Assembly: GCA_963693365.1 (NCBI GenBank)
Contig: CAVNZM010000005.1
Span: 806,001 to 870,000, forward strand
Source of the DNA: Amoebidium appalachense
Taxonomy: Eukaryota > Protista > Ichthyosporea
DNA length: 64,000 nt
Reading direction: 5' to 3'
Made by a program: the position numbers and the translations under genes. Each line of letters begins with the position of its first letter. The first letter of the stretch is position 1. Shown here in pieces: positions 42,901-51,900 of the stretch. Below the pieces are notes generated by a model. That model had not been told where the DNA came from, searched no databases, and saw only the letters and a program-made list of their open reading frames with translations.

Positions 42901-45900
42901 CGCCCTACCCTTGCACACACACACACATGCGCGCGCGCGCGTGCGCGCACGAACGCACGCACGCACACGCACCACCACCACATACACAACACCCCCCCCT
43001 CCCCTCCTCCCACCCCCCTCCCGCTCCCCCCCCCCCCCCCACCCACCCACCCACACACTCACATAAACACAAAACAGAGTGCAGCCGTGTTCGTGGGTGT
43101 GTTGGATCTGCCGTGTGTGTTGGAGGCAAGCCGCAGTGCAAGAGGTGTGAGGCAGGGCTGTATGTGAGGAATGACCCCAGTGGGCTGCACTCGTGTGCTG
43201 TGTGTTCACTGTGCTCGGATGGATCATTTGTTGAGGCTAACTGCACCGTCGATAGAGAGACAACGTGCAAGAGTAAGTGGTGTGACTAGTGTGTGATATA
43301 TGGCTAATCAATGTGTGTGCTTAAGAACACGTCTAATGAGTACCGTTTTCTTTTTTCTTGTTTTCCAATTGGAGCAGCCGCTTCTGTAATTGCACCATGC
43401 TTGTGTGTGTGTGCTGTTCCTTTTGTGCCTTTTGGGGTTCAATAATCATGATTTTTTTGTGCTATTGCGTAAGCAGACACAGGTTCAGGGGGGGGGAAGA
43501 CGAAGTAACTCTCTGTGTCTGATATACCCTAATTTACACAACTTGAGATGACCCACCACCCCCAACAACCAATCATCTGACACGCAATCACCTTGCAGAT
43601 TGTACGCCGGCACCCAACTGCAATGCCAGCCTGACTGTTTGCACGGGGCCGAAGGACAACACGTGCCTGATGGGAGGATGCAGCGAGGGGTACTACAACG
43701 ACCCCACGCTGCCCAGCTCTCAGTGCAAAGGTGGGTGGTTGGATGGGTGGGTGGGTGGGTGGGTGGGCAGGTGGGTGGGTGGGTGGGTGGGTGAGTGTGT
43801 GTGTGTGTGTGTGTGTGTGTGTGTGTGTGTGTGTGTGTGTGTGTGTGTGTGTGTGTGTGTGTGTGTGTGTGTGTGTGTGTGTGTGTGTGCGTGTGGAAGG
43901 AGAGTGGAGTGGTCCGAGTGGAGGATCGTGGGTATTCAATCACGGTTGGTGAACCCATGGGTACCTTTGGAGTAACTGGGCTTGGGTAAGCGAGTGAGTG
44001 AGTCGGCATGGGTTGTGGTGAGATTGAATGGTGGGTGCGCCTGGGGACAAATGGGATGTTCTTTTGAATTGTGTGTCTTCTAGTGGATTTAAGTGCTCAC
44101 TTCTACAGTCATTCATTGACTTTCGATGAACATTTTTCGTGAACGTGAGGACCACAACACATAGGCACACGTGCAACCGTGCACGCACACACACACACAC
44201 ACGTGCGCGCGCGCACACACACACACACACACTCACACTCACACTCACACATACACACACACACACACACACACACACACACACACACACACACACACAC
44301 ACACACACACACACACACACACACACACACACACACACACACACACACACACACACACGTCCAGCCTGCACGCCCTGTAAGAAGGGCCAGTACGTTGCTC
44401 TGCCCTGCCAACAGACTGCCAACTTCGTGTGTTACGGTAGGTGGCCCCATTGAACTCACAGATCATGTTGCTCACTTCGGCCGTTTTGGCATTTTGCATG
44501 GATTCATTTGGCTATGCTTTTTCTGTTTTTCCCTCCTTTCTGATCTAGGTGGGAGACAGGGAGAGGGGACTGGGGAGGGGGGGGGGGGGGGGGGGGGGGA
44601 GGATTTACTTGTATGATAGCAATGCCTTGAACGTCTGTTTTTTAGCTAGTTTCTCCTGGTAATCTTTTCTGCTCCCTCTCGCTCACCCCCACCCTTCCCC
44701 CAGCGTGCTCCAAGGTGTTCAACTGCCAGGATGGGTTCTCAGTGTGTGACGGCACGTCTGTGTCCACATGTGAGCGGGGCAAGTGCATGCCCGGGTACTT
44801 CACAAATGCAACCCTCCCCTCCAGCCCCTGCTATCCGTGCAGTGTGTGTGACCCCCAGACACACTACGCAGCACAGAAGTGCACCCCCACATCAGACACT
44901 GTGTGTCAAGGTTCGGCCTTCCCCCCCCCCCCCCCTTCCCCCCTCTCTCCCTCTCCTCCCCCTCCGCATCTCCTCGTTTTTCCCCCATCCCCTCCACTTT
45001 CCTGCCTTTTTTCCATACACACCTCCTCCCCTTGCCAAAAGGACACACATAACAGGCACAAACGCGCAGACGTGGAGCATACACGTACAAATACGAACAT
45101 AAATCACATACGTGCAATCCCGCCTTTTCGGGTTATGCACTTGAGGAACAATGCATATACACATAATGCACACAGCGTTCTTCCCCCCCCCCCCCCCCCC
45201 CCCCCAATTCCTCTCCTCCCTTCCGTTTGTCTTCTTGTAACGTATACGAAAACACATTCCACACACCCCATCTGCCGGGTTTGTTTCCACAGAGTTGGTT
45301 TTAGCTGCAGGCACACCCATGCCGAGATTCCTATCACAAAGACGTAAATCAGTGCCTGGCTCCAAACTCACGGTCACGTTATTGCTTCCTAATTTGGCAC
45401 ATGCAGACATCCGGTTGGCTGCCAAGCAGCGTGCCGGTGCCGTCATGAAGCTGGGCTCTGACGTCATCATAGAATCAGATCCGCCGGTTTGTATCCCCCC
45501 CCTCCCCCCCCCCCAAAAAAAAATAAAATAAATAAATAAATAAAAAAGGAGGGTACATGAAATATTGAATGGAGAAAAAGAGGGACTATCTATTCAGAAA
45601 CGACTAATAATGACTTTTGGGGGAGAGGGAGGAGAGAAGGGGGGGGGGGGGGGGGGGGGGGGGGGGGAAGGGGGGGGTAATCCTGATAACTTTTATGTGT
45701 GTTGAAGGGCTTGTGGCCTATAAGGTTTCCTGTGTGTGTTGGCCGACTGACTTTTGGATTGGGTCAGGTCAAGATCGGCCAAAACGTGTCGATTGGTGAT
45801 CGCACGAGATTGCGATCTGGATCTCTAATCGGCAACAACACGGAGATTGGCAGCAACATCTACATTGGAGCCTATGCAAAGTAAGGCTCCCTCACAGCTT

Positions 45901-48900: not shown

Positions 48901-51900
48901 GTGGATTCGGATGCGGCCTTTGGCCCTCATGCAGTTATGGGCAAGAATGGTACAGCCACCCTCCCCCCTCCTTCCCCTTCCCCCTCCTCTTGCCCTCCCA
49001 AGGCACACAACAAACACACACACACACACACACACACACACACACACACACACACACACACACACACACACACACACACACACACACACACACACACATC
49101 CGCGTGCACTCACGTTCACACTCACGCTCATACTCAAACGCACAACACACACATGCATGCACACGCGCATAATACAGAGATGCACGTCCGCACGCCATGC
49201 GCGCGTACACACACACACAGACACACACAGCTTGGCATGGCAACCATTGCTTCGATAAACTTGGCTTTTGTAAATTCCTGACGAGAGGCTTAGAAGGGAA
49301 GGGGACCCCCGGGAGGGGGGGGGGGGGGGGGGGGGAGGGGGGGGAGGGGGGGGGGGGGGGGGGGGGGGGGGGGGGCATGCCACTCATTGGTGCATGCACA
49401 GTGATCATCGGCCGGGCAGCCATATTTGGCGAAGGGGTGGAATTGATGGACGATTCACGAGTCGGGCCAGAGTCTCGAATCGGTTCGAATGTGTCTCTGC
49501 AGGCCCGGGTAAGTGCTTGGTTGCCTTAGCTTGGTAACCCTTTTTTTGATTAGTAGTATGATTATGGTGTCGACGATGGTACCGCTCTCATGATGCTCAT
49601 TCTACCTATTGCAACCTCCTGTAATGTCCACTTTGACCCATTACATCTATATTTTTAAAAACAAATAATGCCTGCTGTATCCACATTTTTTAGTGTCGGT
49701 ACCCTTCAGCAAATCATTAATGATATTACTGTATGTCTTTGTTTTGACCGTACCTCCCCAGTCCCGCATTGGTGCAAATGCCACGCTTGGGGACGATGCC
49801 ATCATCTATGTTGAGGGGGTGGTCGAGGACAGACAGGGCCTGGCTTCAGGTGCAAAAGGTACGTGGTACCCTCTGTTTTGCATGTTGTGTGTCGAGCACA
49901 CGCAGGTGCTGGAAAATGCAATAGCCCTGGAATTGTGGAAAACCTGTCAAGGCCAACGAACATAAATGTGCACACGGATTCACACGGAGAAAGATAACAC
50001 GTGCACAGCTTCATTATTAAAAGCATTTGTTCTGAGGTACAGCACAGTCATTTGCTCACCCCTCTACCCCTCCCCCCCCCCCCGCCGGTTCCACCGCCGC
50101 CCTATCCTAACCGACACACACACACACATACACACACACACACACACACACACACACACACACACACACACACACACACATACACAGTGTACCCCGTGGC
50201 CCAGATGGGTGCAATGGCCGCCGAAGCCGAGAAGGACAAGAGCAACAGCCAGGTGATAGGCATAGCCGTGGGGCTGAGCGTGGGTGGCCTTGCACTGATT
50301 GGTCTGCTGACTACCGGCTATGTGTACCGTACAAGGAAGCACGGCCCACGCCTGCAGAAGGTGCCTGATGACGTGCCTACAAACGTCTATGACGGTAGGC
50401 ACCCTTCCCTTCACCAACTCCTTCCCCCCCCCCCCCCCCTGCCCCCCCCCCACACACACCCAAGCCCTCCCCCCCCCTCCTCAGCCTCCGCCCTCTTGTA
50501 TCACCCACCTTTCCCTGCCCCTGCCCCCTGGTGGCTACTACCGATCCATTCTGCACAATATGACACTGAGTTGGCTCTCCACCTTCAGCTTCTCTGCCCA
50601 TGGAGTACCACTTTGCCATCTTTTCCCTCCCCACCCACCAAAAACAAACACACACACATACACACGCACACACACCCTCCTTCTCTTCCACTTCAGCCCC
50701 CTGTTTTCTCTCCATTGATGGAACGGTGTGGGTGGCATGTGTTCTCATGTGATCTTGGCCCAATCAGCGTGTGAGGATAACGACCAGGCCGACCTGCGCC
50801 GGGAGATCCAGGCGCGTGATGGGTATATCCCGTACGAGATATTCTTCAGGCAGGAGGTCGTGGGTGAGGGCGCCTTCGGATACGTCTACCGCGGTACATA
50901 GCCCCCCCCCCCCCCCCCCCCCCCCCCCCCCCCCTTTCTTTTTCATTCCCTCGCTATCCCCTAACCGACCCATCCTATCATAAGTAGCCCTTTTCACAGA
51001 AGAAATTGCTAAGATCCTATGCGGTGGTCACAATACTGTATACCTGCACCCGGCACGACAGGCTTGTTAGAGCATGTTTTCAGAGCATATTGCTGATTGT
51101 GCAATTGCAGGTGTTCTGTATGAGAACAAGAAGTTCAGCGCCATTGCCATCAAGGAATTGCGGTCGATGGATGACGAAAACTCGCAGAAACTGCGAGATG
51201 AGGCGGTATGTGATTTATGCAACCTTCCTGGAATCCCCCACCTCCCGTATCCCTTTTTCACCATTGTTGCATAAGTGATACTTGAGAGAAGCTATTCTGT
51301 TGAATGAGGGGTGCAAAAGTATTTAGCATGTGATGACTTGAGTGTCATCTGACCTTTGTTCTTGGCATTTGCTGTTTTGTGCATGTGCCCACACTTCAGT
51401 TCATCTTCTTGAGATCCCATCTCACTCCAGTTCATCTTCTTGAGATCCCATCTCCTGATCGTGATCGTGCAATCACAGGATCTGATGAAACGGCTCAACC
51501 ACAACAACATCGTTGCCTGCATCGGCATGTCTGAGCTGCGGCCCAGGGAGCCCCAATGCATCATTCTCGAATATCTCGGGGTGGGCGACCTACGGGGATA
51601 TCTCATCAAGAAATACGACAAATTCGAGCCGGTATCCACGGCCGAGCGTCTGTGGTACTGCTGGCAGATATCCTGCGGCATGGCCTATCTGGCCCAGGAG
51701 GGCATTGTGCACCGTGACCTGGCTGCCCGTAACTGTCTGCTGGGCCAGCCCTCGGCATCATCAAATGGTACCCAACCCCCCCCCCCCCCCCCCCCCCCCC
51801 CCCCCCCCAACCTCCCCTTCCCTTCCTTTCAAAAAAGTAAAATAAGGCAACCAACAGATGTTGTGATATTTGGCTTCTTTCTTTGTGTTGTTCAACAACC

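Follow-up and report, generated by a model that had tools for sequence, protein, structure and literature searches.

Receptor tyrosine kinases (RTKs) of ichthyosporeans have been catalogued as families IchRTK1-20, in which EGF and TNFR are among the ectodomain modules and the kinases of Creolimax and Sphaeroforma are included (PMC4342544). The domain legends of that paper name LRR, EGF, CLECT, TNFR, I1, I3, ANF, TSP1 and Kelch. As far as its text and legends go, figures aside, it names no hexapeptide domain: 'hexa' has no hits in the main text, and neither 'hexa' nor 'LbH' has any in the two supplements. For Creolimax, the text of a second paper gives 30 RTKs without architectures (PMC5876402). 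Here we describe a gene in a window of 64,000 nucleotides of Amoebidium appalachense DNA (contig CAVNZM010000005.1, positions 806,001 to 870,000), whose predicted product carries a long block of hexapeptide repeats in front of the transmembrane (TM) helix of a tyrosine kinase. It shares with IchRTK1-20 a kinase of the ichthyosporean RTK clade as well as EGF and TNFR modules, and differs in the hexapeptide module, which is absent from the domains listed in that text. Helix-bearing genes were probably counted in the catalogue without the module being named. Literature searches, with subscription papers, figures and preprint supplements outside their scope, found no description of a hexapeptide or beta-helix module in a receptor kinase.

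A hexapeptide module in a receptor tyrosine kinase

The hexapeptide block is encoded in ten exons (45407-45486, 45768-45880, 46121-46197, 46422-46551, 46771-46935, 47433-47619, 47923-48267, 48667-48949, 49402-49508 and 49762-49858), all with AG/GT ends and in a stop-free frame that continues through the TM exon (50188-50394) and the kinase. An acceptor at 46760 was rejected as it breaks the frame; the acceptor at 46771 gives back frame and register. The block comprises 68 in-register hexads (408 aa) arranged as 41 + 27. Of the 38 and 25 units, 36 and 22 have L, I or V in register, and 23 and 16 have [LIV]G; none of these counts was reached in any of 10,000 shuffles. The repeats fit the motif of tandem hexapeptides, [LIV]-[GAED]-x2-[STAV]-x (PMC3046976), with a position profile resembling that of prokaryotic runs. 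PF00132 (Hexapep) scored above its 27-bit cut-off in four of the eight block exons scanned against Pfam (32.7, 33.4, 50.0 and 60.7 bits). An initial annotation of this DNA had described about 350 aa of such repeats immediately before the TM helix. The repeats were recovered, but they are longer than stated, the TM helix begins 28 residues past the last hexad, and a split of 103 aa within the block had been overlooked.

We also assessed splicing of the block in two sequencing runs from one sample of one study, whose RNA nature is presumed, none of the listed runs being recorded as RNA. The contig assembled from run X1 (6813 nt) behaves as spliced RNA: two introns, 47620-47922 and 48268-48666, are missing from it at GT..AG, and its free ends correspond to the exon that ends at 46935 and the one that begins at 49402, five exons being joined as modelled. 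Run X2 agrees with this splicing; a third run, X3, added nothing. Beyond 48949 the contig extends for 2163 nt, of which the gene model needs 1748 nt to reach the stop codon; the remaining 415 nt, taken as 3' untranslated region, would then reach to some 40 nt beyond an AATAAA at 54615, which fits the model. The initial annotation had placed the repeats in the kinase-containing transcript. For five repeat-region exons the joining is seen directly in the contig; continuation into the TM and kinase exons of the same transcript is deduced from this length arithmetic and from homologous gene models.

A search with a kinase exon returned as top matches Ichthyophonus Ihof_evm12s4, with EGF and TNFR and without hexapeptide, and Creolimax CFRG0219T1, with hexapeptide, TM helix and kinase. 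A HMMER search whose query was the CFRG0219 ectodomain brought in two more members, Creolimax CFRG1497T1 (5710 aa) and Sphaeroforma arctica KNC85203 (XP_014159105). They were the only two kinases among the 149 other matches in the best 150 of 2183, below which further family members may lie. A word-index search with the CFRG0219 helix found itself only among 5395 candidates. All three relatives have the same layout of helix, basic loop, about 27-29 hexads, TM helix and kinase. By eye, CFRG1497 has long EGF and Cys-rich arrays, and both CFRG1497 and KNC85203 have a hydrophobic N-terminus. CFRG0219 starts at the helix with no evident signal peptide, and its gene model may be incomplete. KNC85203 (P0218 in our numbering) also carries an insert of about 430 residues inside the kinase domain, after the DFG motif (aa ~640-1070).

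In a tree of 26 kinase rows, 15 of them lying outside the groups and P0218 and P0092 entered without their kinase inserts, the window kinase falls within the ichthyosporean RTK clade (11 rows) with support of 98/98. The four hexapeptide-bearing kinases form one side of a branch supported at 86/92 and found in 90% of bootstrap trees. An earlier tree of 30 rows joined the window to CFRG0219 at 100/98; a grouping of the window with Ichthyophonus was rejected there (p-AU 0.017). In summary, the hexapeptide module is a real, family-conserved and, judging from the spliced contig, expressed part of an RTK ectodomain, and the locus is almost certainly a genuine gene with helix, TM segment and kinase.

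Fold, exposure and origin of the repeats

Folding was predicted for the exon 48667-48948 (94 aa). From the single sequence AF2 gave a triangular right-handed helix at pLDDT 78, with one of five models converged. This model superposed on bactofilin with an rmsd of 2.1 Å; on left-handed helices it reached a Z of about 12 with an rmsd of about 11.6 Å. Such a high Z together with an rmsd near 11.6 Å is a warning sign of a mirror-handed solenoid model. A bias of AF2 towards right-handed folds for repetitive sequences has been reported (PMC12775518), and in line with it the model was set aside as a likely artefact. When an alignment of 47 rows was supplied (7 window exons and 40 prokaryotic runs), pLDDT was 80-84 in four of five models. 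The best of them (pLDDT 84) fitted solved left-handed helices over 79-87 residues with rmsd 1.3-2.6 Å and Z 11.9-14.6. Neither model gave a Foldseek match at E 0.001. Left-handedness is concluded from homology plus modelling, since the prokaryotic rows favour that hand. The left-handed beta-helix (LbH) named in the initial annotation thus agrees with the alignment-guided model, the single-sequence model having the opposite hand, and we regard a left-handed triangular beta-helix as a very probable prediction.

As N-x-S/T belongs to the ordinary hexapeptide consensus, a prokaryotic control was needed to judge the glycosylation sequons. Loci for it were chosen by the presence of four Ile-Gly pairs spaced 18 bases apart; of 120 such prokaryotic loci, 113 contained an open frame. 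The window has 13 sequons in 65 hexads compared to 36 in 1110 prokaryotic hexads (Fisher p 7.5e-7; 0 of 10,000 resamples), a density about six times that of prokaryotic repeats of the same type; without three low-complexity rows the control amounts to 36 sequons in 1070 hexads. CFRG0219 has 8 sequons in 42 hexads, and long runs in non-kinase search matches are intermediate (6.8 per 100 hexads). The sequon Asn occupies a corner position, i+2 or i+3, in 32 of 32 sequons of the four helix-bearing kinases. The sequon enrichment supports an extracellular, glycosylated rod, and the stalk is likely N-glycosylated. Cys217 and Cys235 (residue numbers refer to a partial gene model whose first exon starts at 44704) lie 18 residues apart in the same outward position and likely form a disulfide between neighbouring rungs; a comparable pair is present in CFRG1497, and this feature, too, points to an extracellular rod. 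All five sequons that had been named initially (NVS, NNT, NAT, NFT and NVT) are present, and the proposed extracellular position of the sequon-rich repeats is upheld by the order of helix, TM segment and kinase in three named homologues, two of them with the hydrophobic N-terminus mentioned above.

The best PDB and NCBIfam matches of the repeats are LpxA, LpxD and NeuD-type enzymes, which would favour reading them as an active extracellular acyltransferase or gamma-carbonic anhydrase. Scores are, however, far under the family cut-offs (for example LpxD, 37 bits compared to 242.5; for the best window exon, 39 bits compared to 207 for LpxD and 161 for NeuD), the repeats are uninterrupted by catalytic loops, and four halves examined contain 7, 1, 3 and 1 His. 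A separate gene or an assembly artefact inside the kinase locus would be the other way to detach the repeats from the receptor; the splicing seen in the contig and the gene models of three homologues link them to it. Taken together, an enzyme, separate gene or artefact is hardly credible.

Nor is the enzyme-derived origin suggested initially necessary, since long loop-free hexapeptide runs are found in large, probably secreted microbial proteins. Among 147 non-kinase hexapeptide proteins (within P0152-P0300), 67 contain loop-free runs of at least 20 hexads, with 20-71 hexads uninterrupted. Their neighbouring domains are often TSP3, C-type lectin, PKD, FG-GAP, RCC1 or EGF (38 scanned), and a hydrophobic N-terminus is present in 29 of the 67 compared to 8 of the 80 others. 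Of 18 non-kinase matches looked up, the four with names are all proteins from metagenome-assembled genomes of Bradymonadia. A literature search found no description of this protein class. The window stalk is like these proteins in its long loop-free runs; they differ in lacking a kinase and in that none of 121 inserts has a furin-type site. Similarity to them is low (49-79 bits, a score that favours long repeats), and kinship on this basis would be conjectural. In-register scores of the window against Creolimax (79-96) lie inside the range of the window against prokaryotes (median 81, top 131). Since repeat similarity is saturated and length inflates scores, the donor cannot be fixed, and transfer from bacteria is a plausible conjecture. 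The ESM Atlas gave generic hexapeptide clusters at 0.85-0.87, and a phage search two weak matches. Nine introns lie inside the block, introns of phase 1 flank it on either side, and its GC3 is 0.64-0.66 compared to 0.71-0.74 in the EGF and kinase exons; introns, GC3 and phase-1 ends fit an old resident module moved as a cassette.

The split helix, its probable cleavage and its oligomeric state

The block had initially been taken as continuous, which overlooked its most conserved feature, a basic loop splitting the helix. In all four helix-bearing kinases the helix is interrupted by an insert (103, ~21, 31 and 20 aa), and all [KR]R pairs of the helix region lie inside these inserts, with none in 217 hexads. 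The window insert is acidic and Pro/Thr-rich, then Gly/Lys/Arg-rich, contains the sequence KRRR and has no Pfam or NCBIfam match. The lower half measures 27, ~27-28, 29 and 27 hexads in the four members, the upper half 41, 22, 40 and 10; with the lower half near constant and the upper half variable, the loop lies at a fixed distance from the membrane. That the insert is kept beside saturated repeat sequence suggests a function.

The strict furin consensus R-x-[KR]-R is found in two of the four members, both from Creolimax; the window has KRRR and Sphaeroforma two RR pairs. In the control set of 121 inserts from the 147 non-kinase hexapeptide proteins, [KR]R occurs in 21, and R-x-[KR]-R or [KR]RRR, the latter pattern picked after the window site was seen, in none. 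We therefore consider that the stalk is probably cleaved at the basic loop by a furin/Kex2-type convertase. Alternatively, the stalk may be an uncleaved rigid spacer whose basic loop is a surface patch binding polyanions such as cell-wall or host glycans, or a partner protein. The window KRRR and the Sphaeroforma RR both fall short of the strict consensus, and the Gly/Lys/Arg stretch of the window insert is longer than cleavage requires. On the other hand, acidic and basic residues occur together in the inserts, and in both Creolimax members the clusters of arginine are exact convertase sites, of a kind found in 0 of 121 control inserts. We regard an uncleaved spacer as rather improbable.

With cleavage in its membrane-proximal hexapeptide rod, this ichthyosporean-type RTK would reach the surface in two pieces, the upper one comprising the EGF and TNFR-like arrays with the upper helix, the lower one about 9-10 coils, TM helix and kinase. 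The halves would stay stacked as one beta-helix continued without a covalent link. At the usual beta-helix rise of 4.8 Å per coil the rod would be about 11 nm long and would lift the long adhesive or sensing arrays away from the membrane. Ligand binding or a pull on the arrays could then cause receptor clustering or release of the upper piece, upon which the kinases would trans-phosphorylate as in other RTKs. The helix would serve as a structural module rather than an enzyme, and a trimer would not be required. As a whole, a glycosylated rigid hexapeptide stalk that a convertase likely cleaves, its two halves remaining stacked on each other, is a tentative proposal to which we give slightly less than an even chance.

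Cleavage might also expose open beta-rungs that stack head to tail between receptors or cells, in a filament-like or homophilic adhesion. Bactofilin-type triangular beta-helices polymerise in this way, and cap removal has been predicted to permit self-assembly of left-handed helices (PMC4372379). There is no direct sign of such stacking here, and an open rung would find its simplest partner in the other half of the same molecule; we regard such stacking as very improbable.

In the initial annotation the domain was proposed to make the receptor a constitutive trimer. Three parallel receptors would be packed by the beta-helix as in LpxA and LpxD, most plausibly by the lower 9-10 coils, which are conserved, and activation would be a rearrangement inside the preformed trimer, which is compatible with cleavage. 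Its original ground, that most solved hexapeptide proteins are homotrimers, is stated in the literature (PMC4372379). The conserved length of the lower half speaks for it as well, and so do two other observations. In the window, one corner is poor in sequons (counts of 6/1/3 and 2/0/1 in the two halves), with p 0.18, or 0.06 on the assumption that both halves are in phase. In CFRG0219, one face of the lower half shows a hydrophobic ladder (p 0.026 in one of 12 tests, in a weak assay that 8 of 42 prokaryotic runs also pass). Against it, sequons occupy all three corners in four of eight halves (6/1/3, 1/1/1, 1/1/3 and 2/2/2). In NeuO the subunits touch mainly through C-terminal elements and a loop that protrudes, few of the contacts involving rungs (PMC3046976), and the window repeats are without such loops and elements; the gamma and epsilon helices of eIF2B interact in a heteromeric subcomplex (PMC3318697). 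Adjacency to TNFR-like repeats, from which a tie to the stalk had been drawn, was confirmed by a PF00020 match (E 2.7e-10) in the exon 44704-44910. It gives weak support, since these repeats and the helix vary independently across the kinases: the Sphaeroforma member has an EGF match and no TNFR match, and the Ichthyophonus RTK has nine TNFR stretches and no hexapeptide. Neither dynactin p25/p27 nor GMPPB is known to be an LpxA-type trimer, and trimerisation of TNFRs is set mainly by ligand.

A complex prediction in which the lower half of CFRG0219 (aa 160-345) was entered three times, with 3 alignment rows used, scored 0.20, the mark being 0.42, and speaks neither for nor against a trimer. 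Positional homology between lower halves was not detectable in the comparison, hence no conserved interface columns were mapped. A constitutive trimer appears unlikely, and the full-length receptor is probably not one. The split with its likely cleavage site is the better-supported novelty.

Several points weigh against the two-piece stalk as proposed. The single-sequence model is right-handed, and 40 of the 47 alignment rows are prokaryotic and would pull the prediction towards the left hand. As folding covered one exon, stacking of the halves is an extrapolation. The run of the contig into the TM and kinase exons is derived from its length, in runs of a single sample. The four-kinase branch falls below the starred support mark of the tree. 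The four members are related, so that the split with its basic loop is one inherited trait and not four independent trials, and Sphaeroforma contributes only RR pairs. In three members the lower half has one or more corners without any sequon (2/0/1, 1/0/2 and 0/0/1, with 1-3 sequons per half), which would allow a lower-half trimer. Cleavage, glycans and oligomer are all predicted from sequence and models.

Layout of the locus and comparison with known systems

The window is intron-rich eukaryotic DNA with what appears to be a single plus-strand gene at 29-54240, whose 5' end lies upstream of the window and whose part upstream of 44704 is deduced from motifs. From 44704 to 54240, twenty exons with AG/GT ends encode 1110 codons with a lone, terminal stop. 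The product would run from at least 48 calcium-binding EGF-like repeats through Cys-rich TNFR-like exons, the hexapeptide block and the TM helix to the tyrosine kinase and a Tyr-bearing tail. The TM helix is the top hydropathy window (2.42, the next being 1.25), and the catalytic motifs of the kinase are intact, including Gly loop and DFG. The predicted single TM helix between ectodomain and kinase and the tyrosine kinase domain with catalytic motifs are features of a type I RTK.

Table 1. Predicted features of the receptor gene in the window
Feature	Position	Strand	Remarks
Calcium-binding EGF-like repeat array, at least 48 repeats	29..29551	+	48 motif matches on +, 0 on -; probably same gene
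Cys-rich exons with TNFR-like repeats, adjoining the beta-helix	30015..44910	+	15 TNFR-end-like motifs
Upper beta-helix half, 41 hexads (aa 80-325)	45439..47940	+	7 exons; 10 sequons
Cys217 and Cys235 pair	46814..46870	+	putative disulfide
Non-repeat insert splitting the helix, 103 aa	47941..48249	+	kept in spliced contig
KRRR, candidate proprotein-convertase site	48079..48090	+	cleavage predicted
Second basic stretch	48196..48243	+	two further [KR]R pairs
Lower membrane-proximal beta-helix half, 27 hexads (aa 429-590)	48250..49839	+	3 sequons
Single TM helix (aa 619-644), then basic residues	50253..50330	+	hydropathy
Tyrosine kinase domain	50839..52961	+	PF07714 E 1.4e-23 (one exon); motifs
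C-terminal tail, six Tyr as candidate docking sites	52962..54240	+	stop at 54240

Some further features were noticed along the gene. An intron of the EGF array (9615-10354) contains a 53-bp unit repeated 14 times at 97% identity, and the frame of an EGF exon at ~13830-14200 (+) shifts near 13985, where a run of poly-C probably reflects an error of homopolymer assembly. A Cys-rich exon at 25603-25770 (+), with a faint chitin-binding (hevein-like) Pfam match (E 0.54), sits between the EGF array and exons at ~26800-27860 that by eye are Thr/Pro-rich and mucin-like. A tRNA-Val(AAC) gene (53034-53109, +) is located on the same strand within the intron that separates the tail exon from the last kinase exon.

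The locus would add an ectodomain module and a probable two-chain architecture to RTKs, in the earliest-branching holozoan group that has them. Even on the plainest reading, a fold known mainly from cytosolic enzymes would serve as a glycosylated extracellular rod, and the locus draws attention to a group of large microbial proteins that have long rods of the same kind. Trimerisation of an RTK, if true, would be a new activation geometry, and so would a release switch made of a beta-helix. Creolimax and Sphaeroforma are cultured ichthyosporeans; with two members in the former and one in the latter, cleavage, oligomeric state and force dependence are directly testable.

Compared to LpxA, LpxD, PglD and gamma-carbonic anhydrases (PF00132), the stalk has the same repeat motif and the same predicted left-handed triangular helix. 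It differs from the LpxA-like enzymes in being apparently extracellular, sequon-rich and without catalytic loops, and its runs of 27-41 hexads compare to at most 16 in the 113 prokaryotic loci. Its closest counterparts, CFRG1497T1, CFRG0219T1 and KNC85203, are annotated merely as kinases or by gene ids. They share with it the split helix, the basic loop, the lower half of about 27-29 hexads, the TM helix and the tyrosine kinase; within the family the upper half varies from 10 to 41 hexads and the insert from 20 to 103 aa.

Among receptors at large, the insulin receptor, MET and Notch are cleaved by convertases, and adhesion GPCRs are likewise split. By analogy, the stalk might act as a release switch of the Notch or adhesion-GPCR kind built from a microbial-type left-handed beta-helix: cut about 9-10 coils above the membrane, its halves would be zipped by rung stacking, possibly with a lower-half trimer, until a pull on the EGF/TNFR arm unzips them and switches the kinase. 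We regard this extension as speculative and improbable as it stands. If the stalk is cut, it would resemble these receptors in that a juxtamembrane domain, itself split, keeps a giant repeat ectodomain attached to a membrane subunit. It would differ from them in that the split domains share no homology, and in that disulfides or HD/GAIN folds do there what stacking of a beta-helix would do here.

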